The notes beneath the pieces were generated by a model. It made no database searches. It was not told the origin of the DNA and saw nothing but the letters and a program-made list of their open reading frames with translations. Position numbers and translations under genes: made by a program. Of a DNA stretch of 47,573 nt, positions 15,424-41,542 are shown piece after piece. The stretch's first letter is position 1; each line of letters opens with the position of its first letter. Source of the stretch: a phage; the sequence record PX132564.1; one strand, 5' to 3'.

Positions 15424-18400
15424 ATGGGTAAAGGCAGCAGTAAGGGGCATACCCCGCGCGAAGCGAAGGACAACCTGAAGTCCACGCAGCTGCTGAGTGT
15501 GATCGATGCCATCAGCGAAGGGCCGGTTGAAGGTCCGGTGGATGGATTAAAAAGCGTGCTGCTGAACAGTACGCCGGTGCTGGACAGTGAGGGGAATACC
15601 AATATATCCGGCGTCACGGTGGTGTTCCGGGCCGGTGAGCAGGAGCAGTCACCGCCGGAGGGATTTGAATCCTCCGGCTCCGAGACGGTGCTGGGTACGG
15701 AAGTGAAATATGACACGCCGATCACCCGGACCATCACGTCGGCAAACATCGACCGTCTGCGCTTTACCTTCGGTGTACAGGCACTGGTGGAAACCACCTC
15801 AAAGGGAGACAGGAATCCGTCGGAAGTTCGCCTGCTGGTTCAGATACAGCGTAACGGTGGCTGGGTGACGGAAAAAGACATCACCATTAAGGGCAAAACC
15901 ACCTCGCAGTATCTGGCCTCGGTGGTGGTGGATAACCTGCCGCCGCGCCCGTTTAATATCCGGATGCGCAGGATGACGCCGGACAGCACCACAGACCAGC
16001 TGCTGAACAAAACGCTCTGGTCGTCATACACCGAAATCATCGATGTGAAACAGTGCTACCCGAACACGGCACTGGTTGGCGTGCAGGTGGACTCGGAGCA
16101 GTTCGGCAGCCAGCAGGTGAGCCGTAATTATCATCTTCGCGGGCGCATTCTGCAGGTGCCGTCGAACTATAACCCGCAGACGCGGCAATACAGCGGTATC
16201 TGGGACGGAACGTTAAAACCGGCATACAGCAACAACATGGCCTGGTGTCTGTGGGATATGCTGACCCATCCGCGCTACGGCATGGGGAAACGTCTTGGTG
16301 CGGCGGATGTGGATAAATGGGCGCTGTATGTCATCGGCCAGTACTGCGACCAGTCGGTGCCGGACGGCTTTGGCGGCACGGAGCCGCGCATTACCTGTAA
16401 TGCGTACCTGACCACACAGCGCAAGGCGTGGGATGTGCTCAGTGATTTCTGCTCGGCGATGCGCTGTATGCCGGTATGGAACGGGCAGACGCTGACGTTC
16501 GTGCAGGACCGACCATCAGATAAGGTGTGGACCTATAACCGCAGTAATGTGGTGATGCCGGATGATGGCGCGCCGTTCCGCTACAGCTTCAGCGCCCTGA
16601 AGGACCGCCATAATGCCGTTGAGGTGAACTGGATTGACCCGGATAACGGCTGGGAGACGGCGACAGAGCTCGTGGAGGATACGCAGGCCATTGCCCGTTA
16701 CGGCCGTAACGTCACGAAGATGGATGCCTTTGGCTGTACCAGCCGGGGGCAGGCACACCGCGCCGGGCTGTGGCTGATTAAAACGGAGCTGCTGGAAACG
16801 CAGACCGTGGACTTCAGCGTGGGTGCTGAAGGGCTTCGCCATGTACCGGGGGATGTCATTGAAATCTGCGATGATGACTATGCCGGTATCAGCACCGGTG
16901 GTCGTGTGCTGGCGGTGAACAGCCAGACCCGGACGCTGACGCTCGACCGTGAAATCACGCTGCCATCCTCCGGTACCACGCTGATAAGCCTGGTTGACGG
17001 AAGTGGCAATCCGGTCAGCGTGGAGGTTCAGTCCGTCACCGACGGCGTGAAGGTGAAAGTGAGCCGTGTTCCTGACGGTGTTGCTGAATACAGCGTATGG
17101 GGGCTGAAGCTGCCGACGCTGCGCCAGCGACTGTTCCGCTGCGTGAGTATCCGTGAAAACGACGACGGCACGTATGCCATCACCGCCGTGCAGCATGTGC
17201 CGGAAAAAGAGACCATCGTGGATAACGGGGCGCACTTTGACGGCGAACAGAGTGGCACGGTGAATGGTGTCACGCCGCCCGCGGTGCAGCACCTGACCGC
17301 AGAAGTCACCGCAGACAGCGGGGAATATCAGGTGCTGGCGCGATGGGACACACCGAAGGTGGTGAAGGGGGTGAGCTTTATGCTTCGCCTGACCGTGGCA
17401 GCGGATGACGGCAGTGAGCGGCTGGTCAGCACGGCCAGGACGACGGAAACCACATACCGCTTCAGGCAACTGGCGCTGGGGAACTACAGGCTGACAGTCC
17501 GGGCGGTAAATGCGTGGGGGCAGCAGGGGGATCCGGCGTCGGTATCGTTCCGGATTGCCGCACCGGCAGCGCCATCGCGGATTGAGCTGACGCCGGGCTA
17601 TTTTCAGATAACCGCAACGCCGCATCTTGCCGTTTATGATCCGACGGTACAGTTTGAGTTCTGGTTCTCGGAAAAGCGGATTGCGGATATCAGGCAGGTT
17701 GAAGCCAGCGCGCGTTATCTTGGTACGGCGCTGTACTGGATAGCCGCCAGTATCAATATCAAACCGGGCCATGATTATTATTTTTACATTCGCAGTGTGA
17801 ACACCGTTGGCAAATCGGCATTTGTGGAGGCTGTTGGCCAGCCGAGTGATGATGCATCCGGCTATCTGGATTTTTTCAAAGGAGAGATAGGGAAAACCCA
17901 TCTGGCTCAGGAGTTGTGGACGCAGATTGATAACGGTCAGCTTGCGCCTGACCTGGCTGAAATCAGGACGTCCATTACGGATGTCAGCAATGAAATCACG
18001 CAGACCGTCAATAAGAAACTGGAAGACCAGAGTGCAGCGATCCAGCAGATACAGAAGGTTCAGGTTGATACAAATAATAACCTGAACAGCATGTGGGCTG
18101 TGAAGCTGCAGCAGATGCAGGACGGACGCCTTTATATCGCGGGTATTGGTGCCGGTATTGAGAATACCCCTGACGGTATGCAGAGTCAGGTGCTGCTGGC
18201 GGCGGACAGGATTGCGATGATTAATCCTGCGAATGGCAATACAAAGCCGATGTTTGTTGGGCAGGGCGATCAGATATTCATGAACGAAGTGTTCCTGAAA
18301 TATCTGACGGCTCCCACCATTACCAGCGGTGGCAATCCCCCAACGTTTTCACTGACACCTGATGGTCGACTTTCTGCGAGAAATGCGGATATCAGCGGTA

Positions 18401-18906
18401 ACGTGAATGCGAACTCCGGGACGCTCAATAATGTCACGATTAACCAGAACTGTCGGATTCTGGGAAAACTGTCAGCTAACCAGATTGAAGGTGATATTGT
18501 CAAAACGGTGGGAAAAGCCTTTCCGAGAAATGGCAGTTATGCCAGCGGTACAATAACGGTCACTGTGTACGATGACCAGGCTTTTGACCGTCAGATAGTC
18601 GTCCCCCCCGTTCTGTTTCGCGGTGGTAAGCATGAAAACTTCAACAGCAACAACCAACAGTCATACTGGTATTCAACCTGTAAGCTGCAGGTGCTGAAGA
18701 ACGGACAGGAAATCTTTCAGCAACCCGCGACGGATGTCAGCAGGGTATTTTCATCAGTCATTGATATGCCTGCCGGACACGGCCATGTCACCCTGACTTT
18801 CAATGTTTCTTCATATGGTGCAAATAACTGGACGCCAACGACCAGTATCAGCGACCTTCTTGTTGTCGTGATGAAGAAATCAACAGCCGGCATCAGTATC
18901 AGTTGA
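15424..18906 (+). CDS. J: central tail fibre / host specificity protein J
   Basis: 1160-aa ORF, lambda gpJ-like N-terminal and central regions; C-terminal receptor-binding part not verified. Confidence 0.93.
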
Positions 18907-21658: not shown

Positions 21659-22516
21659 CTAATTGGGTGATAACAGATCCTGTGTATGGGAGTTTCCCTT
21701 TTTGCGTGCGTTGATGCTGGTAACGGCAAACGTCATGATGAACAAAACCGCGAATAAGACGACAATCGTCGGAGCTGGTGCGCTGTCGATAAAAAAGGAC
21801 AACCAGACACCAGTCATTGACACTATTACCGATATGCCAGTCGCCAGTAGGAGCGCAATATGAAAGCGTTGTGTCAGGAGTACCGCAATGGCGCCAGGCG
21901 CAATGAGCAGAGAAATGGAGAGAATGATACCTACCGCTTTCAGCGTCGCCACAATGGTCAGAGAGACCATGCACAGCAGCCCATAATGCAGCCATCTCGT
22001 ATGCAAACCGCTTACCTGCGCCTGTTGATAATCAAAGCTGAACAGCAAAAAATCCCGCCATTTTACGCTAATAACAAGTGTAACCAGCCCGGCAATAATC
22101 ATCGTCTGGATTATATCGCCGATGGTTATCCCGAGCATGTCGCCGAAAAGAATATGGTCAAGATGTACGTCTGGTTTGACTGCAATATACAAGATCAGAC
22201 CTGCGGCAAACATGCCAGAAAAAACAATCCCCATCACTGTATCTTGCTTGATTCGGCTGTTGTCTTTCAGGTATCCCGTCGCCACCGCACAGAATACTCC
22301 GGCGACGAATGCCCCTGTAGCCAAAGGTAACCCCAGAATCCAGGCAAGCACGATGCCAGGAAAAACCGCATGACTCATCGCGTCACCCATCAGTGCCCAA
22401 CCTTTCAGGACCAGAAAGACCGACAGCAGCGCACAGGGTATGGAAACTACCAGTGAAATCAGCAGTGCGTGACTCATAAAGGTGAACTGCAGTGGCTCCA
22501 GTAATAATGCCATCAT
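21659..22516 (-). CDS. sitD: Mn/Fe ABC transporter permease SitD
   Basis: 285-aa polytopic membrane protein, last gene of a four-gene binding protein/ATPase/permease/permease operon. Confidence 0.85.
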   Translation of the reverse strand: MMALLLEPLQFTFMSHALLISLVVSIPCALLSVFLVLKGWALMGDAMSHAVFPGIVLAWILGLPLATGAFVAGVFCAVATGYLKDNSRIKQDTVMGIVFSGMFAAGLILYIAVKPDVHLDHILFGDMLGITIGDIIQTMIIAGLVTLVISVKWRDFLLFSFDYQQAQVSGLHTRWLHYGLLCMVSLTIVATLKAVGIILSISLLIAPGAIAVLLTQRFHIALLLATGISVIVSMTGVWLSFFIDSAPAPTIVVLFAVLFIMTFAVTSINARKKGNSHTQDLLSPN

Positions 22517-23370
22517 GAGCGATCCTCCAGCGCCTTATGCGCACGCCGACGATTTGCCAAAAGCCCATGGGTGGGCGCAAAGACAAATGCTAAAAGAAAC
22601 AGCAGTGTCTGCGCCACCACGATGATTCCACCTGTCGCGCCGTCCAGAAAGTAACTGACCCACGCGCCGAGGAAACTGGTTACACTGCCAATAGTTACAG
22701 CAATCATGAGCAGGCGGGGAAAACGATCGGTTAACAACCATGCTGTTGCACCGGGAGTCACCACCAGACAGATCACCAGAAAGGCACCAACCGTTTGCAG
22801 CGCCGCAACGGTCGAAACCGACAGCAGGGTGAAGAAGAGGAGTTTTAATCTGCCCGGATGCAATCCAATAGCACGGGCGTGATTCTCGTCGAAAAAGGTC
22901 ACCATAAGATCTTTCCATTTGAAAAAAAGCACGATGATCGAGAGAATGCCAATGATAGTGAGTTGCAGGATATCCGCCGGATCGATTGCCAGAATATTGC
23001 CCAGGACGATGGTCTGAATGTTCACAGATGTCGGGTTCAATGACACCATAAACAGCCCCAGGCCAAAAAAGGACGAGAAGATCAGACCGATGATGGCATC
23101 TTCTTTTAAGCGGGTGCGTTGGTTAAGAAACAGCATGCTGCCCGCAGCCAGTCCGCCGGAAAAGAAGGCTCCCAGAGAAAACGGAAGCCCCAGCATATAT
23201 GCCCCCGCAACACCCGGGACAATAGAGTGCGACAACGCATCGCCAATCAGCGACCAGCCTTTTAGCATCAGATAGCATGACAGGAAAGCGCAGAGACCGC
23301 CGACCATCGCCGAGACCCACATCGCATTGAGCATATATTCATAGCTGAAGGGTTCCAGTAGCACGTTCAT
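22513..23370 (-). CDS. sitC: Mn/Fe ABC transporter permease SitC
   Basis: 285-aa polytopic membrane protein, paralogous to the adjacent permease. Confidence 0.85.
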
Positions 23371-24194
23371 CTTTCTTCCCTCTGCACCGCTGACGGTCGA
23401 TGAGCCACAAAAGGGCGTTCATCGTCAGTAATAATGCTTTCTTCCGAGCCGTTAAGTGTGACATGGCGCAGTACGCCGCTAAAAGCCAGCTCTAGGTTCT
23501 CGGCTGTAAAAGTGGTGTCTGTCGGCCCGCTTGCCAGGACGGTGCCTTTGACCATGACCGTATAATCGCAAAATGTCGTGACGGATCCGAGATTGTGTGT
23601 TGAGACAAGCATCGTTTTGCCTTCCGCGCGTAACTCCCTCAACAGGCTGATGATTTTGGCTTCGGTTTTCACATCAACGCCAGTAAAAGGTTCATCCAGC
23701 AGGATCACATCACCCTGCTGTGCAATCGCTCTCGCCAGAAAGACGCGTTTCTTTTGTCCACCGGAAAGCTCGCCGATTTGTCGATGGCGAAAATTCACCA
23801 TATCGACACGTTCCAGCGCATCGGTGACAATTTGACGATCCCTCTTTTTGGCGATACGCAACATACCCATATGCCCATAGCGGCCCATCATCACCACATC
23901 TTCCACCAGTACAGGAAATGACCAGTCAACATCTTCTGACTGAGGGACGTAGGCAACCAGGTTTTTCTGTAACGCCTGTCGCGTGGGAATACCCAGAACA
24001 GATATCTTTCCGCTGGTCAGACGCACAAATCCCATAATCGCTTTAAACAACGTCGATTTTCCGGAACCGTTTACCCCAACCAGAGCGGCAATAGATCCAC
24101 TTGGTACTGTGAAGGATGCATCGCGCAGTGCTGTGTGCCCGTTACGCCAGGTGACAGTAACATCATTAACGACAATGCCTGCAGATTGCATCAT
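23367..24194 (-). CDS. sitB: Mn/Fe ABC transporter ATP-binding protein SitB
   Basis: Walker [13 protein letters not shown] signature LSGGQKKR, Walker B ILLDEP. Confidence 0.9.
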
Positions 24195-25108
24195 TATTTC
24201 TCCCTTTTCCCAGCTTTAATTCCCTGTACCAGCGTACTGGTAGTAACCTTAAGAAGGTCGATATACGTCGGTACCGGGCCGTTTTCTGTGCTCAGGGAAT
24301 CGACATAGAGCACACCGCCGTAGTGTGCGCCGGTTTCACGCGCAACCTGACGCGCTGGTTTATCGGAAATCGTACTCTCGCTAAAGACTGCCGGGATATG
24401 ATTTTTCTTAACTATATCAACAACCTTACGTACCTGCTGCGGTGTTCCTTGTTGATCGGCATTAATCGGCCACAGATAAAGCTCTTTTAGCCCCAAATCG
24501 CGTGCGAGATAAGAAAAAGCCCCTTCACTGGTGACCATCCATCGCTGATTCTCAGGGAGTTCCGTAATCTGCTTACGCAGGGGGGCAAGGGTTTGGGTAA
24601 TCTTGGCTTTATAAGTATCGGCATTGCGTTGGTAGGTTTGTGCATTTGCCGGATCGTATTTTATCAACGCATCACGAATATTATCGACGTAAATCAGAGC
24701 ATTATCTGGCGACATCCATGCATGGGGGTTAGGTTTGCCCTCATAGGGTCCTTCGGTGATCCCTACAGGCGTCACACCCGAAGAGACAATTACTTCTGGA
24801 ACCCCATTGAGATGCTGGTAAAAGCGTTGGAACCACAATTCCAGATTCATACCATTGGCGAGAATCAGTTGTGCCCCCTGCGCACGTTTAATATCGCCAG
24901 GGGTAGGCTGATACTCATGAATTTCTGCACCAGGCTTGGTTATGGATGAGACTTCTGCAGCATCTCCCGCCACGTTTTTGGCCATATCCGCGATGATGGT
25001 AAATGTTGTAATGACCTTGAATTTTTCAGTTGCACTTGCCTGAAATGCGATCGAGCAGGTGAGTGCGAGCCCCCCCAAGAGCATGGTTACTTTTTTTATC
25101 GAGTGCAT
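24194..25108 (-). CDS. sitA: periplasmic Mn/Fe-binding protein SitA
   Basis: 304-aa protein with signal peptide [26 protein letters not shown] and metal-binding-protein-like body. Confidence 0.9.
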
Positions 25109-25140
25109 AATTTAGTACCTATAGTGAGCAAAATTAGAAC

Positions 25141-25163
25141 AAATATAGCAACGGCTATGTTTT
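25141..25163 (-). promoter_or_regulatory. MntR-box-like palindrome upstream of sitA
   Basis: AAATATAGCAACGGCTATGTTTT contains the inverted repeat ATAGC-N4-GCTAT, close to the MntR box AAACATAGC...GCTATGTTT as I recall it. Confidence 0.5.
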
Positions 25164-25184
25164 ATAGCACAGCCTATACAAAAT

Positions 25185-25203
25185 GAAAATGATTATCATT
25201 AGC
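25185..25203 (-). promoter_or_regulatory. Fur-box-like sequence upstream of sitA
   Basis: GAAAATGATTATCATTAGC matches about 16 of 19 positions of GATAATGATAATCATTATC. Confidence 0.5.
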
Positions 25204-25502
25204 AGCTTTGAGGCCCAAAACAGGGATTAGGTTGTTTCCTGCTGGCGACGCGTTATTGAGGAAAAAAGTAAGGCAGCTAGTAGGCTTTGAAATAACGTTT
25301 TGCGGTTGGCTGATGCAATTTCGAGAGTGCATGTATTGAATGATTTCTAGCCGTTACTGATTTTCGTATTTTTTGTATGGGAGGATTTGCACCTCCCCCC
25401 ACCGAGCCTCCATGACTTTACTCCACTGTCTCTAGGGCTGCTGTGTGCCAGGAGCGGAAGCAGGGGGGCCAGAGACTCCTTAAAAGTTGATAGCTCGTTT
25501 TG

Positions 25503-25598
25503 CAGGGAGACTTACACGGTAAGCGTTATTCCGAAGAGCTTAAAATTGAAGCAGTCAAACGGGTTGTTGAGCGTGTTTATGCGCTGCCATCTGATTAA
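25503..25598 (+). pseudogene. possible IS3-family transposase OrfA N-terminal remnant
   Basis: Short frame ...GKRYSEELKIEAVKRVVERVYALPSD* resembles the N-terminal HTH motif (KRYxEEFKxEAV) of IS3-family OrfA; only about 30 codons, no downstream transposase. Confidence 0.3.
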
Positions 25599-25806
25599 TC
25601 GACGGAAGCAGTTCCGTTTGGTCTATGATGCAGTTGTCCGGCAGGCGCTCTGTGACGCAAAAGAACGATAGGAGTAGCATTGAAGTGAACGAGGTTATGC
25701 TTGTCTTATATTATCCTCTATTTTAAAAACATCAGCTGGTTGTGTAAGAGTTTTTATTGTTTTATCTTGTTGACTTTGCTTTTATGAAAACAGAGTGATT
25801 GATACA

Positions 25807-26565
25807 ATGAAAACCTTAAGTGGGAAAGAGTTTAGGAAATTATTTAATCGTTATGAGACAGGATTCTATCTAAGTGAGTTTGAATACTTAAAGGACTTTG
25901 ATCCTTTGTTTCCTGAATGCGTAGGGAAAGAATTAAAGTTGGGTTATAAACGAAAAGTTGATGTATGGTGCGAAGAGGATGCTGCGCTATATGCAGAATT
26001 TATAGCTACAAAAGAAAGGCTGAAAAGAGGCCGGTTAATCCTAAAAATAAACCAAGTGTGGTCGCGTGTATATCCTGCTTATATTTATGCAATTGAAGAA
26101 AGAATAAATGTCAGGGCAAAGGGGAGAGAGTCATTTAAGTATGAAACTGTGCAAGAAAAACAATGTAAACTTTCCATAATGTTAGATGGTCTGAAAGACC
26201 TTGAATGTGAAATAGCTATGATTTCAAGTGAGTTTGAAATTGAAAAACACTCTATGCACTATTTTTATATGATTTTTGATATTGAACGCTATATAAATGA
26301 CTGCAGTTACTTTGTTTTTTCTGCTGCTAAAGTTGTTAAAGGCGTGATTCAATGCATTGGTTACATTGACAAAAATAACAAAGCAAGTTGCGATGAATTT
26401 TATTCAGGCAGCTATGAATGCTTGGATGATGATCAGGAAACACTGAACTATTTAAATGAATCATGCGCAGAGGGTATAGACGCTGATAAAGATCTCATCA
26501 GGAAGAATGAGTTATTAGCCTTATCCCTGAAGGAATTGTATCAACTTCTCGTTTCAAAAAAATAA
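25807..26565 (+). CDS. hypothetical protein, AT-rich orphan (252 aa)
   Basis: Long uninterrupted ORF MKTLSGKEFRKLFNRYETGFYLSEFEYLKDFDPLF... with markedly lower GC than flanking phage DNA; AT-rich upstream with TTGACT -35-like hexamer; no family recognised. Confidence 0.55.
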   Translation: MKTLSGKEFRKLFNRYETGFYLSEFEYLKDFDPLFPECVGKELKLGYKRKVDVWCEEDAALYAEFIATKERLKRGRLILKINQVWSRVYPAYIYAIEERINVRAKGRESFKYETVQEKQCKLSIMLDGLKDLECEIAMISSEFEIEKHSMHYFYMIFDIERYINDCSYFVFSAAKVVKGVIQCIGYIDKNNKASCDEFYSGSYECLDDDQETLNYLNESCAEGIDADKDLIRKNELLALSLKELYQLLVSKK

Positions 26566-26687
26566 CAAGTAATACGGCGAGCGATATGACGTGCCATGGG
26601 ATATCCGCACCCAGCAGCATGTTGTCTCCACGATGTCCGCAGTTCGCTCATAATAGACATTCACTACAGTTATAGTAGAAGGTATGC

Positions 26688-26846
26688 ATGCTGCTGAGTG
26701 GGGAAAGTGTGAAAGAAAAGAAGACAGCTGCTTTGTTTGTCGTCACGTTTATCTTCATTGGCTATGCAAGTCGTAATACAAGGCGGGACAAAACTGAGAC
26801 ACATAAGGCCTCGCAATGGCTTGCAAGGCCACACATGTATTGAGAT
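26688..26846 (+). CDS. possible small single-helix membrane protein (52 codons)
   Basis: MLLSGESVKEKKTAALFVVTFIFIGYASRNTRRDKTETHKASQWLARPHMY; below the track length cut-off; coding status uncertain. Confidence 0.2.
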
Positions 26847-26894
26847 GTTAATAAAATGTAGACTTGTAATTTTGATATAAATGGTAGAGAAAAT

Positions 26895-26907
26895 CTTTCC
26901 CCAAAAT
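26895..26907 (+). repeat. CTTTCCCCAAAAT, distal copy of the TTCCCCAAAA repeat family (candidate Int arm-type site)
   Basis: Same motif as the three tandem copies at 27256-27292, on the other side of the icd-homologous segment. Confidence 0.35.
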
Positions 26908-27024
26908 AAAAACGAACGTCAATGAAATCAAACGGTTGAATAAAGTTGATTTTGGCTAATACAAAGACAAGAAAATAATATTTATGATTAAATATCAGCG
27001 AGTTGAATACATAATTTTTATATA

Positions 27025-27189
27025 CTGCTGCGCCATATGGGTTGGACTGAAGCGGCTGACCTGATTGTTAAAGGTATGGAAGGCGCAATCAATGCCAAGA
27101 CCGTAACCTATGACTTCGAACGTCTGATGGAAGGCGCTAAACTGCTGAAATGTTCAGAGTTTGGTGACGCGATCATCAAGAATATGTAA
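27025..27189 (+). pseudogene. icd: phage-borne copy of the icd (isocitrate dehydrogenase) 3' end within attP
   Basis: Translates in frame to ...[54 protein letters not shown], the Icd C-terminus; no upstream icd body; lies just downstream of the int 3' end. Confidence 0.8.
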
Positions 27190-27212
27190 TCACTACATGT
27201 GTTAAATATTGA

Positions 27213-27241
27213 AACGGGCGTATAACACGCCCGTTGTTTTA
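27213..27241 (+). terminator. rho-independent terminator after the icd fragment
   Basis: ACGGGCGT-ataac-ACGCCCGT followed by TGTTTTA. Confidence 0.6.
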
Positions 27242-27255
27242 TGATGATGTAAAAT

Positions 27256-27292
27256 CTTCCCCAAAACTTTCCCCAAAACCCTTCCCCAAAAC
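27256..27292 (+). repeat. three tandem 12-13 bp direct repeats (C/T)TTCCCCAAAAC, candidate integrase arm-type sites
   Basis: CTTCCCCAAAAC / TTTCCCCAAAAC / CTTCCCCAAAAC at about 27256, 27268, 27281, just beyond the int stop. Confidence 0.4.
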
Positions 27293-27302
27293 TGGCTATT
27301 TT

Positions 27303-28445
27303 CTATGCTGTTTTGATATCTACGATAATCCAGTCTTTACCACGATCATCATTGTATCGGTCGGTCATTTTTCTGGATTTATGGCCTAACAACTTTTGCG
27401 TATCCAGACCCTGTTCCCGATATAACCGTTCTGACAGAGATCGCTGCTCATGAAATGTGGGCGCAGTTCCTTGCTCCCATTTTATGCCACATTTTTCCCG
27501 GGCCTTTTTAAAAGCCGTTGTCAGAGTATTTGCAGAAACCTGGTCTCCTCTGTTTGCTTGAGAGGTAGTGTGACGGTAATGGACCAGATATTTACTAACA
27601 ACAGCATCCCTGCACTGAGATATAACTTCACGAAGGGTAATATTCAGAGCATCGCATTTCAGGTTAAGCGGAATAGCAAGTTTTGAACCGGTTTTTTCCT
27701 GAGTAATGTGCAACATGTCGTCCCATATATCAGAGAATTTCAAATTGCAGATATCGCCTAAACGTTGTCCAGTAACAAGAGCAAGTAGCATGCCGCATTT
27801 TAAATAGGGCTGCCGTCTGCTTACGCTGTCAAATATTGCCTGCCATTCGGGCAGTGACAATCTTTGGCGGTTTACTCGATTTCGCGGTTGTTTTGTTGCC
27901 TGCGCTGGGTTAAATCCTGGCGGAACATGTCCTGCGTGTTGTGCTTCTTTGAAGACGTCGATCAACACCATTCTCACGACTTGCGCCATCCTGTTATGAC
28001 CTTCAGCCTTTACAGCATCAATTATTTCGGCAATATCAAGTGCGGTAATATCCTTGAGGTGTTGCATTCCACAATGCTCACGGAAAAGACGAATGGGTTT
28101 GCCTTTTTGCCGATAGGAGTTGGGTCTTAGTTCATTATGTTGCAGCCTGTCCTCTTGGATAGAAATATATTTATCAAGCCATTCTGTCACCGTAATGTCT
28201 GAGCGCCTGCCTTTCATTCTTTCCAGACGCTCATTGACGCTTAATATTTGTCTGGTACGTTGTTCAGCAATAATGGTATTTGCTTCAGTAGCAACTTGTT
28301 TTGCTTCATTCTCATCAGTTCCTAAGCTATGAAAACGACCGGATAGTGGATGTTTGTATTGCCAATATACCTTTCCGGTTCGCTTATCTAATTTGCAATA
28401 TAAATTGGGTATAGAGATTTTGTGAGATCGGGGTCTAGCAGCCAT
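27303..28445 (-). CDS. int: tyrosine integrase (lambda Int family)
   Basis: 380-aa protein; C-terminal catalytic region ...FHEQRSLSERLYREQGLDTQKLLGHKSRKMTDRYNDDRGKDWIIVDIKTA with R..H..R..Y arrangement; adjacent to attP and xis. Confidence 0.9.
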   Translation of the reverse strand: MAARPRSHKISIPNLYCKLDKRTGKVYWQYKHPLSGRFHSLGTDENEAKQVATEANTIIAEQRTRQILSVNERLERMKGRRSDITVTEWLDKYISIQEDRLQHNELRPNSYRQKGKPIRLFREHCGMQHLKDITALDIAEIIDAVKAEGHNRMAQVVRMVLIDVFKEAQHAGHVPPGFNPAQATKQPRNRVNRQRLSLPEWQAIFDSVSRRQPYLKCGMLLALVTGQRLGDICNLKFSDIWDDMLHITQEKTGSKLAIPLNLKCDALNITLREVISQCRDAVVSKYLVHYRHTTSQANRGDQVSANTLTTAFKKAREKCGIKWEQGTAPTFHEQRSLSERLYREQGLDTQKLLGHKSRKMTDRYNDDRGKDWIIVDIKTA

Positions 28446-28671
28446 CAGCGATTATCCTTTGGAGTTTTGGGTTTGCGTTTATTGGGAGTTGCGGTTCTGC
28501 AAGCGTTCCTACAAAACGGGAATTTCGGTCAATCATCCAGTAGCGACCAACTTTTATAGCGGGTGGGGCCATCATTTTCCCTTGCGCGTATTTTTTCAGA
28601 ACTCGCTCACTTGGTGCTAAGTCCCCAAATTCTTCTTTAGCCCAGTCCTGTAAAGTGATTAGTCGAGACAT
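28435..28671 (-). CDS. xis: excisionase
   Basis: 78-aa ORF overlapping the int start as lambda xis does; small basic DNA-binding-like protein. Confidence 0.7.
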   Translation of the reverse strand: MSRLITLQDWAKEEFGDLAPSERVLKKYAQGKMMAPPAIKVGRYWMIDRNSRFVGTLAEPQLPINANPKLQRIIADGC

Positions 28672-36553: not shown

Positions 36554-39500
36554 ATGACCACTGTGAATAAAAAGTTAAAAAAAACTGCATCTGGCGCGAT
36601 TACATGGTCGGTAATTGTTACCCAGATATTATCTCCAGTTTCTCTTTCTTTGATCCCAGCAAACAGTTTTGCATCATCTGGTAATAAAGATGTTACGCAA
36701 ATTTATGCCAGCGATGAGCATGCAAATAAAGTGGCCTCATTTGCAGCAAGTGCAGGTCAGAGCCTGGCGAATAATAATGCAAGTAGTTTTGCTGTAAATA
36801 CTTTATCAACTCAGGCGACAAAAGAGGTCGTCGACTGGTTGCAACAATATGGCAATGCGCGCATCAAGCTTAATGTCGATGATTCTTTTTCCTTGAAGGA
36901 TTCATCATTCGACTTTTTATATCCATGGCTGGATACTCAGGATTATGTGTTATTCAGTCAGACATCACTACATCGTACTGATGACCGAAATCAGACCAAT
37001 ATTGGTTTGGGGATTCGTCATTTCACTCCTGATAACGCAATGTTGGGTGCGAATGTTTTCTATGATTACGATTTAAGTCGTAGTCACTCTCGTGCAGGTT
37101 TTGGGGTTGAGTACTGGAGGGATTATTTCAGGCTTGGTGTAAATACCTATTTTGGTCTATCTGACTGGAAGAACAGTCGTGATATTGATGATTATCTGGA
37201 AAGACCTGCAAATGGCTGGGATTTTTCTGCTGAAGGATGGCTACCTGCTTATCCGCAATTAGGGGCATCTATTCAGTTTGAAAAATATTATGGTAAAAAT
37301 GTCGGGTTATTTGGAAGCGATAACCTGCAGGAAAACCCTTACGCAGTTACTGGGGGAATTTCTTATACACCAGTTCCTCTGATTAAGTTTTCTGCACAGC
37401 ATAAGCAAGGACAGAGCAACACTCACGATACAACCTTTGGTGTTGAGTTTAATTATCGCCCGGGCGTTTCCTTGGCTGAACAGCTTAGCAGCGATAATGT
37501 TGCAGTTATGCGAGAAGTCCAGAACCGGCGTTATGATTTTGTTGAACGAAATAACAACATTGTTCTGGAGTACAAGAAGAAGCATGCACTGAAAATCAGT
37601 TTGCCAGAGTCTGTTCAGGGGGAGGGGGAATCAATCATCCCTGTAACACTGACAATCAACAATGCTAGTGGTGGTATCAAGTCTGTACAGTGGAATGATA
37701 GTGCATTCACTGCGGCTGGCGGCAAGATCAGTGGAAATGGCACATCATGGCAGATCACTTTACCGGCTTATAAAAGCGAAGGTGTAAATTCGTGGAATGT
37801 TGGAGCCACAGTACAGGATAACAGAGGCAACGTTTCCAACTATGCCGTGATGAATATTAGCGTTACTGATAGTGGTGTCTCGACGGCTGATTCGTCTTTT
37901 ACACTGGATGGAGATTCGTCGCCGACAATCTCTGCTGATAGCCAATCCACTTATCCGATAGTATTAAGCCTGAAAGATAGTAACGGTAAGGCATTAACCG
38001 GACTGGCTGATGACATTGAAATGTCAGTGGAATTTACAGCAGATAGCAATAGTGCTCGACAGCGTGAAACGGTAACTGCTCCGTCATTAGGCGCGGTAGA
38101 GGAAATCTCTGCTGGGGTATATCGCTCTAAAAGCGAAGGTGTAAATTCGTGGAATGTTGGAGCCACAGTACAGGATAACAGAGGCAACGTTTCCAACTAT
38201 GCCGTGATGAATATTAGCGTTACTGATAGTGGTGTCTCGACGGCTGATTCGTCTTTTACACTGGATGGAGATTCGTCGCCGACAATCTCTGCTGATAGCC
38301 AATCCACTTATCCGATAGTATTAAGCCTGAAAGATAGTAACGGTAAGGCATTAACCGGACTGGCTGATGACATTGAAATGTCAGTGGAATTTACAGCAGA
38401 TAGCAATAGTGCTCGACAGCGTGAAACGGTAACTGCTCCGTCATTAGGCGCGGTAGAGGAAATCTCTGCTGGGGTATATCGCTCTGTTCTGGCTGCTGGT
38501 TCGCAGGCTGGTACGGTACGTGTAACTGCAAAAGTTCAGGGAAAAACATTTACTCTCAGTATTAAGCAAACAGCAACAACAGAACCTGATTCTGAGGTCA
38601 GTGCTGTTTTAACCGCTGCACCAGCAGAACAGGTAGTTGGTTACAATATCAATCTACAACTGGCAGTGAAGGATTCACAAGGAAATGCAATCACTGGTGA
38701 TAACACTCTGAGCTTTTATGCTCTTAACCAGGCAGAAGGAGTCGAGTTTGGGACTGTAACGGAAAAAGACGGTGTCTATAGCGCGACAGTAACTTCAAAA
38801 CGAGCTGGTAAGATTACTATCGGTGTTAAATCTGATAGTCATGATTTCTCAGGTGTTAAGAAAGAAATCACCTTTATTGAGGACCGGCAGCAGGTTACAT
38901 TCTCTCAGTTTGAAGCCAGCCAAAATAATGCATTGGCTGATGGAAAACAGAGAAATATGGTAACTGTAAGCCTTGCGGACCGTTTCGGCAATGTTGTTCC
39001 TGGTTATGCTGTCACATTGTCTTTACCAGCAGGGATAACTCAAGTTGGTGGTGAACATGCTGTTTCAACTGACGAAAATGGTAATGCTATTTTTGCGTTA
39101 ATAAGCTCCACTCCGGGGTCTTACGTGATTACAGCTCATGCTGGTTCTCAGATGTCTACTGAGTTAACAGTGACCTTTGCATCAAATATGACCGGAGCTT
39201 CACTGTCACTGACGCCTGAAAGCAGTAGTTTAATTTCCAATATTCCTGCTAATGGTAAGGATGCAGCGGTATTAGATGTGCAGCTGACAAATACGAATGC
39301 GTCGGTCAATGGGCAAAAGATTCAGCTCATCACCTCATCTGAAGGATTATCTGTACCAACAAATATCGTGACTGATTCAACAGGGCATGTTTCTGTTCCG
39401 CTTACAACGGTGAAAGCTGGTGAGTACACGGTGACTGCACGGGTGACTGACGGTTCCCATAGCGTGGAATCTGGCAGCGTTAAGTTAACTTTTGTGCCCG

Positions 39501-40462
39501 ATGTTGCTTCTGCAGAACTGAATATGAGTGTATCAAAACAGGAGATTGTGGCCGATGGCAGTGAAAACGCAACAGTAAACATTCAGTTGGTTGATGCGAA
39601 TAACAATGCGTTTACAGGCGAGGTGGATTTAACGATTACACCATCGACGGGAGCATCATTGACCAGTAGTAATCTGCAACTGGATGCTCATGGACAGGCA
39701 ACAACGCAGTTCACTGCATCGAAATCAGGCCAGTACACAATTCAGGCCGAGTATGTTCTGGATGGGAAACGCATAACCGCAAGCCAGAATATTGATGCCG
39801 TGACGGATGTGAAGGGGGCTGTGTTGGAGATCACATCATCTGCATCTTCGGCTGTAGTGAGCGATACCAACAATCTGGTATTTACGTTACTGTTGAAAAG
39901 TAAGTCAGGCGAAGCATTAAGTGGTCGAGCATTGAATGTTAAGACATCTGGGCCGTCTAAATATGGTGCGTTGGTGGTTGATAAAACCACAGTAACGACT
40001 GATGAGAACGGTCAGGCTACGGTAAGCGTACATGGTCGAACGGTTGGTTCGTATAAATTAACGGCGACCTTAAACGAACTTGGCAGTGATGTTAGCGCGG
40101 TGAAATCATTCTCCCTGTACGCTGATGACGCAAATGGAGTATTGACTCTAACAAAAGATCCTGGTTATGAGACAAACGATGGATCTCCAGTAGGTATTTA
40201 TGCTCGATTTGTCGATCATTTTGGAAACCCATTATCTGGTACGGTTGAGTTTTCTGCTGGTAGTGAAGATAGTCCAGACTCTCAACGGGTCAAAATGGAG
40301 CCTGCTACAGTAACGTTACACTGGACAGGTAATGCAGCTTCGGAATTCAGCACCTATGAAAGTGGTTATCACTGGATTAAGGCCAAAATAACGAATAGCA
40401 AAAATACATATGAGAAAACAATAAGGACTTATGTTGTAAAACTACCTGAAAAGGATAGTTAA
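36554..40462 (+). CDS. invasin/intimin-family inverse autotransporter adhesin with multiple Big (Ig-like) repeats
   Basis: 1302 aa; signal peptide, then a beta-barrel region (…LFSQTSLHRTDDRNQTNIGLGIRHF…NPYAVTGGISYTPVPL…DRNNNIVLEYKKK) resembling Yersinia invasin/intimin, then serial Ig-like repeats; AT-rich upstream. Confidence 0.85.
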   Translation: MTTVNKKLKKTASGAITWSVIVTQILSPVSLSLIPANSFASSGNKDVTQIYASDEHANKVASFAASAGQSLANNNASSFAVNTLSTQATKEVVDWLQQYGNARIKLNVDDSFSLKDSSFDFLYPWLDTQDYVLFSQTSLHRTDDRNQTNIGLGIRHFTPDNAMLGANVFYDYDLSRSHSRAGFGVEYWRDYFRLGVNTYFGLSDWKNSRDIDDYLERPANGWDFSAEGWLPAYPQLGASIQFEKYYGKNVGLFGSDNLQENPYAVTGGISYTPVPLIKFSAQHKQGQSNTHDTTFGVEFNYRPGVSLAEQLSSDNVAVMREVQNRRYDFVERNNNIVLEYKKKHALKISLPESVQGEGESIIPVTLTINNASGGIKSVQWNDSAFTAAGGKISGNGTSWQITLPAYKSEGVNSWNVGATVQDNRGNVSNYAVMNISVTDSGVSTADSSFTLDGDSSPTISADSQSTYPIVLSLKDSNGKALTGLADDIEMSVEFTADSNSARQRETVTAPSLGAVEEISAGVYRSKSEGVNSWNVGATVQDNRGNVSNYAVMNISVTDSGVSTADSSFTLDGDSSPTISADSQSTYPIVLSLKDSNGKALTGLADDIEMSVEFTADSNSARQRETVTAPSLGAVEEISAGVYRSVLAAGSQAGTVRVTAKVQGKTFTLSIKQTATTEPDSEVSAVLTAAPAEQVVGYNINLQLAVKDSQGNAITGDNTLSFYALNQAEGVEFGTVTEKDGVYSATVTSKRAGKITIGVKSDSHDFSGVKKEITFIEDRQQVTFSQFEASQNNALADGKQRNMVTVSLADRFGNVVPGYAVTLSLPAGITQVGGEHAVSTDENGNAIFALISSTPGSYVITAHAGSQMSTELTVTFASNMTGASLSLTPESSSLISNIPANGKDAAVLDVQLTNTNASVNGQKIQLITSSEGLSVPTNIVTDSTGHVSVPLTTVKAGEYTVTARVTDGSHSVESGSVKLTFVPDVASAELNMSVSKQEIVADGSENATVNIQLVDANNNAFTGEVDLTITPSTGASLTSSNLQLDAHGQATTQFTASKSGQYTIQAEYVLDGKRITASQNIDAVTDVKGAVLEITSSASSAVVSDTNNLVFTLLLKSKSGEALSGRALNVKTSGPSKYGALVVDKTTVTTDENGQATVSVHGRTVGSYKLTATLNELGSDVSAVKSFSLYADDANGVLTLTKDPGYETNDGSPVGIYARFVDHFGNPLSGTVEFSAGSEDSPDSQRVKMEPATVTLHWTGNAASEFSTYESGYHWIKAKITNSKNTYEKTIRTYVVKLPEKDS
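37772..38485 (+). repeat. perfect tandem duplication, 2 x 357 bp (119 codons), inside the adhesin gene
   Basis: Protein segment KSEGVNSWNVGATVQDNRGNVSNYAVMNISVTDSG...EEISAGVYRS occurs twice back to back; antisense track ORFs 37760-37945 and 38087-38302 are identical over their shared 60 residues. Confidence 0.9.
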
Positions 40463-40473
40463 CAAAATTGAAT

Positions 40474-40500
40474 GGGGAGGGCTTAGCCCTCCCTCTTTTT
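40474..40500. terminator. bidirectional rho-independent terminator between convergent adhesin and esterase genes
   Basis: GGGGAGGGC-tta-GCCCTCCC(T)C followed by TTTTT on plus and an A/T-rich run on minus. Confidence 0.7.
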
Positions 40501-41542
40501 ACAGGTTAGCGTTTGGGTTTTGTTGTTGGGGAGCTGTTTTTATAGGCGCTCCCAGGTTTTTAGTAAACCACTCAACGACTCTGTTTATAATAATTGGCTG
40601 ATACCATGTCTTATCGCCATGCTCGGCCCCTTCTACCAGCACGTACTCAGCGTTATCACCGTTCTTCTTCAACATCCTGAATAGTTTGGCGCTTTGCTCA
40701 GGTGAAACCAGAGTGTCTTTGCTACCATGCATAATAAGAAATGGGGGTTTTACTCCTTTCATATGTCCGATTGGACTGGCGTTTAGCGCTTTTTCTTTTG
40801 ACGCTGTGATGGGGGCTCCCGCAAAATTTCTGAATGCAGGGCCATTGATCATTAAGGCTTCGGTTACGGCAGGAGAGCGATGAACCTCCTGCACTGATTC
40901 AGGGAACCCCTCGCCAATATTCAACAAGTCAGAAATCCCATAAAGTGTGGCAACTGCCTGAACATCTGAGGATTGCTGAAGAAAGTCACCTTTATCAAAG
41001 GTTTTGTCACCATTTGTAGTTCCCATCATCTGGGCAAGCCATCCACCGGCAGAGTCACCCAGAACTCCGATTCTTTGAGGATCAATCCCATAATTGCTGG
41101 CATGCTCTCTCAGGTAACGTATTGCAGCTTTTCCATCCTCAACTGGTGCTGGAAATGTATCAGGAATTGTTCTGTATTCTACAGCGGCCACAACAAAACC
41201 AGCTTCTGCCAGAGCCATTCTCATTTCAATAAATTTGTCATGTTCAGAAGACATGAATCCGCCGCCGGGATAATAAATAATGGCTGGTTTTAAATCATTT
41301 GTTCGCGGGACAAGAACTGACATGTGAAGCTGTCTGACAGAACGAGTTCCTTTTATCTGGGAATAAACAACATCACCAATGAGATCGACCTGGTTTCTGG
41401 TCGGTGAAACACTAATGATATCTGCACCCGGGGTGTAACCAGGAAGATTAGTCTGGACAGGTGTTGCACAACTCCCGACCGACATGGCCATTGACATACC
41501 ATACAATAGTGTTGCAGATGATAATATCTTGTTAATTTTCAT
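40499..41542 (-). CDS. alpha/beta-hydrolase esterase/lipase, probable lipoprotein
   Basis: 347 aa; lipoprotein-type signal ending in Cys; oxyanion-hole PGGGF, nucleophile elbow GDSAGG, C-terminal HG. Confidence 0.8.
   Translation of the reverse strand: MKINKILSSATLLYGMSMAMSVGSCATPVQTNLPGYTPGADIISVSPTRNQVDLIGDVVYSQIKGTRSVRQLHMSVLVPRTNDLKPAIIYYPGGGFMSSEHDKFIEMRMALAEAGFVVAAVEYRTIPDTFPAPVEDGKAAIRYLREHASNYGIDPQRIGVLGDSAGGWLAQMMGTTNGDKTFDKGDFLQQSSDVQAVATLYGISDLLNIGEGFPESVQEVHRSPAVTEALMINGPAFRNFAGAPITASKEKALNASPIGHMKGVKPPFLIMHGSKDTLVSPEQSAKLFRMLKKNGDNAEYVLVEGAEHGDKTWYQPIIINRVVEWFTKNLGAPIKTAPQQQNPNANL

Follow-up and report, generated by a model that had tools for sequence, protein, structure and literature searches.

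An orphan gene of a phage-21-type lambdoid phage appears to be the cargo of a mobile unit in the slot of lambda ea31-ea59

The DNA analysed here (sequence record PX132564.1, 47,573 nucleotides; called the window) is the complete genome, opened at cos, of a lambdoid phage of the phage-21/Perceval type. It carries an AT-rich open reading frame of 252 codons, ORF252, between the sitDCBA operon and the phage attachment site attP. Sequence comparisons indicate that ORF252 is a genuine gene that encodes a protein and is under purifying selection. They also show it to be the cargo of a discrete unit of about 1.2 kb (25444-26650) that moves horizontally and that sits, between the same arms, in the backbone slot that ea31-ea59 has in phage lambda. 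As far as sequence goes, ORF252 is a true orphan. In the lysogen it is transcribed at levels like those of cI in Dulbecco's modified Eagle medium (DMEM) and macrophages, while the lytic genes are silent. We regard ORF252 as a prophage moron, or accessory cassette, whose variant aspects are its protein architecture and the arm-bounded unit that it has in common with lambda ea31-ea59. We tentatively favor the view that it serves exclusion of, or defence against, other genetic elements, as a DNA- or protein-binding protein. The unit consists of the following parts.

25444-25516 (+): left end (LE), with the arm TGTGCCAGGAGCGGAAG at 25444-25460, then a conserved extension ending in ...ACTTACAC.
25517-25695 (+): frameshifted remnant of an orfA of the insertion sequence (IS) family IS3, from ...GKRYSEELKIEAVKRV... 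to ...ELNEV.
25696-25806 (+): conserved AT-rich upstream region, 27.9% GC, the presumed promoter/operator of ORF252.
25807-26565 (+): ORF252, orphan cargo gene of 252 amino acids (aa), from the ATG at 25807 to the TAA at 26565.
26566-26650 (+): conserved 3' segment with the right arm (right end, RE) TGTCCGCAGTTCGCTCA at 26634-26650.

An original prediction, made from the window alone, had singled out a low-GC reading frame of 252 aa at 25807-26565, and this stands: the GC content is 34.1% in ORF252, the lowest of the window, and 27.9% in the 111 nt upstream, compared with 50.6% for the window. The lowest-GC frame of 759 nt begins at 25701, and 0.4% of frames of equal length have a GC content of 34.5% or less. 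RefSeq starts the protein at a GTG at 25795, which gives 256 aa (WP_000567449.1). The start at 25807 is backed by an alignment of eight loci, in which an ATG or GTG is kept at this position and the 12 nt upstream are not. Among eight genes from different genera the pairwise ratio of nonsynonymous to synonymous substitution rates (dN/dS) is 0.15-0.40, with a median of 0.23, and 78 residues are invariant in 20 full-length homologues that are 63-99% identical. Two truncated database entries (P0021 and P0022) were set aside as evidence of pseudogenisation; they look like assembly or adapter artefacts. A terminator scan found no + strand terminator directly after the stop codon.

No family could be recognised for the protein, as originally claimed: Pfam, NCBIfam, the PDB and an exhaustive HMMER search gave no informative match, and no homology to a characterised housekeeping or structural family was found. 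The PDB search (phmmer and profile) returned no match for ORF252, and a profile of residues 1-62 none at E <= 10. The HMMER profile scan covered 1.84 billion cluster representatives and recovered only one full-length representative of the gene's own family, which is narrow and enterobacterial, plus fragments. A word-index search gave 23 matches, all at least 63% identical. ORF252 corresponds to PHROG 20520, annotated as of unknown function, and is labelled "hypothetical" in phage 21 (whose annotators used HHpred), in Perceval and in E. coli genomes. The novelty that had been ascribed to the stretch does not extend to the sequence, which has been known for a long time, is present in phage 21 and has many database entries; the protein fits none of the families described. 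In literature searched with the gene identifiers, ea31/ea59 and cassettes, we found no description of ORF252 or of the arms.

The original prediction had missed the orfA remnant of IS3 and the conserved repeats at the ends, which define the mobile unit. In the loci read, the LE consensus is ...GnCnGCTn/TGTGCCAGaAGCGGAaGTTggAgt.ccaga (more than 20 left arms) and the RE consensus is aAcgTCCGCTccTCGCTCA/nAgcGGaC (22 right arms); a dyad-type arm scan gave 0.38 chance matches per shuffled locus. On a Klebsiella plasmid, a site upstream of an NYN gene matches region 25440-25517 with 82% identity. Homology between the window and the Klebsiella and Citrobacter copies (L005 and L009) stops exactly at 26650, and homology with another locus (L011) begins at 25445. 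The DNA in common with the Klebsiella variicola, Mangrovibacter and Citrobacter copies is limited to about 25690-26650, or to 25430-26640.

The IS3 remnant has its own history in these copies. More than 2,000 plasmids have annotated IS3-family transposase genes that are 86-92% identical to positions 25517-25589. The remnant is kept in the window (E. coli) and in two Citrobacter copies (L008 and L011), is present in another, rearranged form in Mangrovibacter and in a metagenome-assembled genome (MAG) of Aeromonadaceae (L006 and L014), and is missing by a clean deletion from the copies in Klebsiella and C. sedlakii (L005 and L009).

ORF252 is carried by lambdoid prophages, an integrative conjugative element (ICE) and small islands, in Escherichia, Citrobacter, Klebsiella, Mangrovibacter and the Aeromonadaceae MAG. 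Its contexts include a prophage end, the cargo of a PFGI-1/pKLC102-type ICE, an island with KlcA and DUF932 genes, small islands with a tyrosine recombinase of 200 aa, and a site adjoining a type I restriction-modification system. We found no conserved partner gene: the neighbors differ in all eight contexts, and the arrangement is not that of a toxin-antitoxin or other multi-gene system. The upstream region co-travels with ORF252 at all eight loci, with the block ATCAnnnGGTTGTGTAAGAGTnTnTATnGTTTTATCTTGTTGAC nearly invariant. Because the neighbors differ in every context, we conclude that ORF252 moves alone with its leader. The annotators of phage 21 placed a CII-dependent promoter (TTGT-N6-TTGT, 25757-25770) in this leader. 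We rejected this promoter as the reason for the conservation, because the ICE and island copies keep the block without CII.

The same arms recur around other genes. Inverted copies of TGTGCCAGRAGCGGAAG ... TCCGCTCCTCGCTCA bound one- or two-gene units in phages, plasmids, ICEs and islands; the arm-bearing loci are the window, lambda (L015), L005, L008, L009, L012, L017, L018, L020, L023-L029 and L035. Neighboring units are spaced by a constant 34 nt, which gives an imperfect palindrome of about 70-80 bp, and lie in either orientation. For example, a viral contig and Yersinia alsatica share, at 98% identity, a unit of 1,240 bp that encodes a secreted protein of 293 aa. The homologous stretch starts 2 nt outside the left arm and stops about 15 nt past the right arm, and elsewhere the two have only one weak match of 69 nt in common.

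We compared the arms with the ends of known mobile elements. The termini are TG...CA and imperfectly inverted (LE TGTGCCAG..., RE ending ...CGCTCA), and the lambda RE matches the window LE at 15 of 17 positions. These termini, together with the contiguous orfA remnant, resemble the ends of IS3-family elements. The arms were not accepted as IS3 ends with target duplications of 3-4 bp: direct repeats are absent from the flanks of all of 12 units compared, which have inverted half-sites instead (...GnCCGCTn / nAGCGGAC...). No full-length parent IS with the same ends was found in PLSDB. Exact scans for the LE found it in three viral contigs and in four of about 100,000 species genomes, and none of those examined had a transposase between the arms. 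Stable DNA hairpins were also rejected, since the arms fold no better than shuffled DNA.

Integron cassettes and mobile insertion cassettes (MICs) provide a second comparison. Like these, the arm units are small and mostly single-gene, have conserved, imperfectly inverted ends, and occur as the same unit in unrelated replicons. They form arrays in which an imperfect palindrome of about 70-80 bp separates the units, and a tyrosine recombinase sometimes lies beside them. In contrast to integron cassettes, they lack the R''/R' cores of attC, occur in both orientations and have leaders of their own. The arms were therefore not taken to be attC sites; their consensus differs, and the linked recombinase scores 58 bits against a cut-off of 220 in the integron/XerA model. 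This recombinase has 200 aa and lacks the insertion of IntI. Unlike MICs, the arm units have no target-site duplications and no parent IS was found.

An empty backbone site was not found among 5,426 complete E. coli genomes, the only departure being a different replacement in strain AF16. In AF16 (L030, 3138-3635), about 500 bp of another AT-rich, coding-like remnant replaces window 25246-26744. The interval between sit and attR thus seems to be a general replacement hot spot that is not confined to the arm-bounded unit.

The lambda b region holds a different cargo in the homologous slot, left of sib/attP. The backbone on the two sides is about 80% identical (window 25301-25458 and lambda 24191-24348; window 26636-26775 and lambda 27323-27464, 81%), and the same arm pair encloses ea31-ea59, with TGTGCCGGAGCGGA... 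at lambda 24334 and CTTCCGCTCCTCGCTCA at 27321-27337. Based on profile matches, we consider ea31-ea59 a Septu-like candidate defence system: ea59 matches PtuA (Septu) at 5e-184 and PDC-M01A at 4e-201, and ea31 matches PDC-M01B at 6e-113 (lambda 24509-26973; L015 5510-7974). The lambda cargo is a two-gene system of an ATPase and an HNH protein (PtuA/PtuB-like, PDC-M01) that is transcribed leftward from pL. In contrast, ORF252 is a single gene on the opposite strand, with its own leader and a product that does not look enzymatic, and the two share no sequence similarity.

Other cargo is also found between these arms. Phage phi458 has a third kind, a protein of 379 aa of unknown function; its gene adjoins ORF252 in the Citrobacter sedlakii ICE, where it is 93% identical and the homology ends at the right arm. 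Both arms are present around lambda ea59/ea31, a T5orf172 protein (PDC-S57, 8e-15), an HNH protein of 489 aa, and a two-gene unit with PDC-M14A (6.5e-10) whose right arm is degenerate (ending ...CGCTGT). Only the left arm was seen for a DUF6602/NucC-like nuclease (2.8e-33; its unit is cut off by the end of the locus), a RelA_SpoT (toxSAS-like) protein of 432 aa and an NYN protein. The rnlA-rnlB pair (RnlA/RnlB) is located between units and not inside one. The arms indicate that ea31-ea59 and ORF252 are interchangeable units drawn from a pool that temperate phages share with ICEs and plasmids. They thereby offer a testable handle on the exchange of defence-type cargo between temperate phages and other mobile elements.

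The recombinase found beside some units is a catalytic-domain-only, Xer-like tyrosine recombinase of 200 aa. Its family comprises at least 7,995 clusters and is 78-98% identical from Pantoea to Idiomarina. Its genes lie at the following positions.

L005, 7235-7837: 200-aa recombinase gene.
L008, 3385-3987: 200-aa recombinase gene.
L031-L035, 10001-10603: 200-aa recombinase genes.

In each of four independent contexts (Klebsiella, Providencia, a Cycloclasticus-type ICE and Pantoea), the recombinase stop codon is followed by a GC dyad and then by the left arm, and in three of them the right arm precedes the gene. This recombinase may be the enzyme that acts on the arms. No remnant of it was found in the window or in lambda. 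Our literature searches found no description of the recombinase-arm arrangement, which is absence of evidence and not proof of novelty. The association may prove a more consequential lead than ORF252 itself.

Expression was assessed from public RNA-seq of the Perceval lysogen LF82, re-tabulated in S1 Table of PMC9928086, in which ORF252 is LF82_189/PERCE_30. Its log2 fpkm (fragments per kilobase per million) is 4.43 and 4.45 in overnight lysogeny broth (LB), and 7.1-8.0 in four other conditions that the paper describes as DMEM and macrophage samples (PMC9928086). On the same scale, the Perceval head and tail genes lie at 2.3-3, the floor, and cI at 6.2-8.1 (PMC9928086). Relative to overnight LB, the ORF252 transcript is up about 8-fold in DMEM and macrophages, a rise that parallels those of sitA, bor and emrE. 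These values answer the concern, raised in the original prediction, that the gene might be silent in lysogens. ORF252 also has two marks of a moron, transcription in the lysogen while the flanking phage genes are silent and a GC content distinct from that of the phage. Since the sit operon diverges from ORF252 and early transcription from pL has the opposite direction, the ORF252 transcript would start in the conserved leader. ORF252 is common and is expressed as strongly as the prophage repressor in host-like conditions, yet it has gone unannotated since phage 21 was sequenced.

The structure of the protein was modeled with AlphaFold2 on an alignment of 20 sequences (predicted local distance difference test score 92.5, predicted TM-score 0.84). 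In the model, residues 1-55 fold as beta-alpha-alpha-beta-beta, a putative winged helix of the excisionase/MerR type. This domain packs on a long antiparallel four-helix bundle formed by helices 56-110, 115-147, 153-189 and 206-251. The best structural matches of the N-terminal domain are the AlpA excisionase of GIsul2, RdfS, and Xis of HK022, lambda and Pukovnik, none of them supported by sequence profiles; the fold also matches the regulators AlpA, MerR, TnrA and GlnR. Compared with the GIsul2 excisionase (8c3t), lambda Xis (1lx8) and CvkR (7xn2), ORF252 lacks a profile match and has an acidic helix 2. The bundle of about 200 residues, for which structure comparison gave no informative match, is absent from Xis and AlpA and differs from the single coiled coil of MerR. 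The predicted wing is basic (KLGYKRKVDVW, with K48, R49 and K50 invariant), and H151, C166, C183, C195 and an LDDD motif at 206-209 are also invariant. The protein is 30 kDa, acidic (isoelectric point, pI, 5.3) and predicted to be soluble, with nine cysteines. Readings as a HEPN protein, a pore-forming toxin or an enzyme were dropped by inspection, as there is no Rx4-6H motif, no hydrophobic tongue or transmembrane segment and no catalytic motif. From the model, the N-terminal domain may contact DNA through its wing, or may contact a protein.

We favor a role in exclusion or defence because the slot and the cassette pool are rich in defence-type cargo. Under this hypothesis, a promoter in the conserved AT-rich leader would drive ORF252, and the protein would act in the lysogen as a non-enzymatic binder. 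Its winged helix, with the basic wing, would make contact with DNA or a partner protein, and oligomerisation or sensing would fall to the helical bundle. The outcome would be superinfection exclusion, or defence against phages or other mobile genetic elements (MGEs). Several single-gene exclusion morons lie near att sites: old, tin and fun of P2, lit of e14, and rexAB and sieB of lambda. ORF252 resembles these as an att-proximal, compositionally foreign accessory gene that is expressed in the lysogen. It has no homology to any of them, and its role in exclusion would be by analogy. If ORF252 does exclude phages or other elements, it would represent a structurally new single-gene system and help to explain prophage persistence.

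Several observations weigh against this hypothesis. ORF252 has no match in Pfam or NCBIfam at E <= 1, and no Pfam helix-turn-helix model matches. Its sole match in PADLOC-DB v2 is PDC-M13C (E = 0.0077, 14.5 bits, residues 2-25), which is negligible and does not place it in a defence family. The N-terminal domain is confidently predicted only when packed on the bundle, and helix 2, the usual recognition helix, is acidic (LSEFEYLKDF); given these two features, the domain may bind protein rather than DNA. A consensus scan found no sigma-70-like site on the + strand upstream of ORF252, so that, of the promoter-like region originally described, the AT-richness and conservation hold and a recognisable promoter does not. 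Guilt by association is weak, since a secreted RHS-like protein and several unknowns are also among the cassette cargo. Lastly, expression in LB is about 3-fold over the prophage background and under the 5-fold cut-off that the authors set for morons, so ORF252 is missing from their Table 1 (PMC9928086). The accessory or defence function first proposed thus fares unevenly: orphan status, the cargo slot and expression in the lysogen agree with it, whereas membership of a PADLOC family does not, and the defence part gains by analogy with the lambda slot and the co-cargo. The fullest version of the proposal is a new single-gene anti-phage or anti-MGE effector of no described defence family, carried by an undescribed enterobacterial cassette system (with TGTGCCAGRAGCGGAAG ... 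TCCGCTCCTCGCTCA arms and including lambda ea31-ea59) that the 200-aa recombinase shuffles between lambdoid phages, ICEs, plasmids and islands. We consider this full version unlikely.

Other functions could be served by the same architecture. ORF252 could be a regulatory moron, an AlpA/MerR-like protein that tunes host or prophage promoters by environment and excludes no phage, with possible targets in the adjacent sit operon, prophage induction, or host genes used in nutrient-poor or intracellular conditions. Its N-terminal fold matches those of AlpA, MerR, TnrA and GlnR, and MerR-type proteins have a winged helix followed by a long helical dimerisation element. The condition-dependent expression, about 8-fold up in DMEM and macrophages and parallel to that of sitA, bor and emrE, would fit such a role, as would the divergent orientation relative to sitA. 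However, ORF252 is found in ICEs and islands of other genera without sit and therefore has no fixed nearby target, the helix that would read DNA is acidic, and no sequence model of a regulator family matches. In addition, sitABCD works without ORF252 on plasmids and in Shigella and Salmonella; plasmid copies of sit were seen in our genome search. We think regulation somewhat unlikely. An accessory role in mobility is a good deal less probable. Here ORF252 would be an excisionase-like protein, of the recombination directionality factor (RDF) type, that acts on the LE and RE arms or on attP and steers a tyrosine recombinase in trans, either the 200-aa family or the phage Int. Excisionases and RDFs are the best structural matches, ORF252 has a conserved inverted arm on each side and is 240 bp from the P arm of attP, and the arms are linked to the small tyrosine recombinase in every context read. 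But other cassettes with the same arms have no ORF252 homologue (tblastn negative), the phage has its own Xis beside int, and most ORF252 loci have no recombinase nearby. RDFs are typically 55-100 aa and have no helical bundle of 200 residues.

We also considered whether ORF252 is directed against the host's own proteins, as an anti-defence or counter-host factor with which a mobile element neutralises an immune or regulatory protein by binding it. Like many inhibitor proteins, ORF252 is acidic (pI 5.3), all-helical and without a catalytic motif; a winged-helix fold can bind protein, as in CbpM; and the Citrobacter werkmanii island with ORF252 also has KlcA-type antirestriction and DUF932 genes. 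This function is nonetheless improbable, as ORF252 is oriented opposite to the early pL transcript, is active in the established lysogen and not together with the early lytic genes, and lies outside the leading region of the ICE. Least probable is that ORF252 is selfish or decaying cargo with no function for phage or host. It adjoins an IS remnant in a recombination-prone slot, and at least one E. coli strain (AF16) has a different sequence in its place. However, a dN/dS of about 0.23 across genera, 78 residues invariant in 20 sequences, a confident and compact model, a conserved leader and expression of the gene all speak against this. Exclusion or defence remains our preferred reading of ORF252.

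The lambdoid backbone resumes after the unit, and the interval up to the integrase contains the following features.

26651-26880: lambdoid backbone, with a doubtful open reading frame of 51 aa and a tI/sib-like hairpin.
26688-26843 (+): the 51-aa open reading frame, annotated in phage 21.
26881-27295 (+): attP region, with Int sites, a copy of the icd 3' end and the icd terminator.
26890-26907: P-arm Int site; 27251-27293: three P'-arm Int sites (repeat family D1, CTTTCCCCAAAA).
27037-27189: copy of the icd 3' end; 27213-27235: icd terminator (phage 21 annotation of attP P1P2P3 and an ICDH-like pseudogene; terminator scan).

The small frame had been described as 52 codons at 26688-26846. It ends at 26843, encodes 51 aa, and is probably not a gene and instead backbone and terminator sequence. 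It overlies DNA (26636-26775) that is homologous to lambda, where lambda has no annotated gene, and the frame from the ATG is broken in lambda; the distal part (VKEKK..., hydrophobic) is open in both phages, and a shorter conserved peptide may be made from it. PADLOC-DB v2 gave no match. We rejected the frame as a partner gene of ORF252: it does not co-travel with ORF252, lies in lambda-homologous backbone where its frame is broken, and overlaps a terminator. This last is a minus-strand hairpin at 26807-26830 that overlaps the 3' half of the frame (z = -3.4; 0 of 200 shuffles fold as well) and is located as tI/sib is in lambda, downstream of int across attP. The surrounding 26787-26843 is 91% identical to an SfII/SfV sequence, annotated "terminator" in the Shigella phage SfII. 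The single imperfect inverted repeat reported after the gene thus resolves into two, this hairpin and a repeat at 26604-26621/26687-26704.

Of four copies of the phage-21 Int arm-type site, CTTYCCCCAAAA, the P arm has one and the P' arm has three; these positions place the AT-rich 26881-27036 wholly inside attP. An Rfam scan of 25000-27400 found nothing relevant. A sub-threshold match to the tpke11 small RNA at 27194-27258 (20.8 bits against a gathering threshold of 43, E = 0.25) overlaps the icd terminator and is probably due to chance.

The placement of ORF252 in a cargo slot between the sit operon and attP was confirmed: sitA occupies 24194-25108 and the P-arm Int site 26890-26907. The genes that flank this slot are as follows.

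21659-25108 (-): sitDCBA iron/manganese transporter operon, the divergent left neighbor of ORF252.
24194-25108 (-): sitA, the left flank of the ORF252 stretch.
27303-28671 (-): phage-21-type integrase (27303-28445) and excisionase (28435-28671).

Gene order in the window is terminase, head and tail genes, J (15424-18906), tail fibre, sitDCBA, the ORF252 stretch, the copy of the icd 3' end, int/xis, exo/bet/gam, cI, O/P and lysis. Region 25100-27300 is 99-100% identical to phage 21 (OL657228), to Perceval of the adherent-invasive E. coli (AIEC) strain LF82 and to infant-gut phages such as ev207. At least 80% of the region is present in 739 of the 5,426 complete E. coli genomes (about 14%). There the region is the attR end of an icd-inserted prophage, and the order is sit, ORF252, old icd 3' end, ymgL. 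The carriers are typically of the extraintestinal pathogenic E. coli (ExPEC) or AIEC type, for example LF82 and NC101, and the gene is always beside the sitABCD virulence operon on prophages of the phage-21/Perceval type. In the chromosome of E. coli FXCREC028 (L001, 6001-9346) the phage-form junction sit-ORF252-icd'-int is contiguous. Two clinical E. coli chromosomes show such a junction, which implies that icd-type prophages lie there in tandem or side by side and not as one insertion.

The nin region contains a gene for an inverse autotransporter of 1,302 aa (36554-40462, +), whose upstream region and 5' end rank second lowest in GC in the window. The protein is of the intimin/invasin type, with an IAT_beta match at 5e-101 and five Big_1/Invasin_D3 repeats. 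A BD-FAE alpha/beta hydrolase gene follows in convergent orientation (40499-41542, -). These two genes look like further morons.

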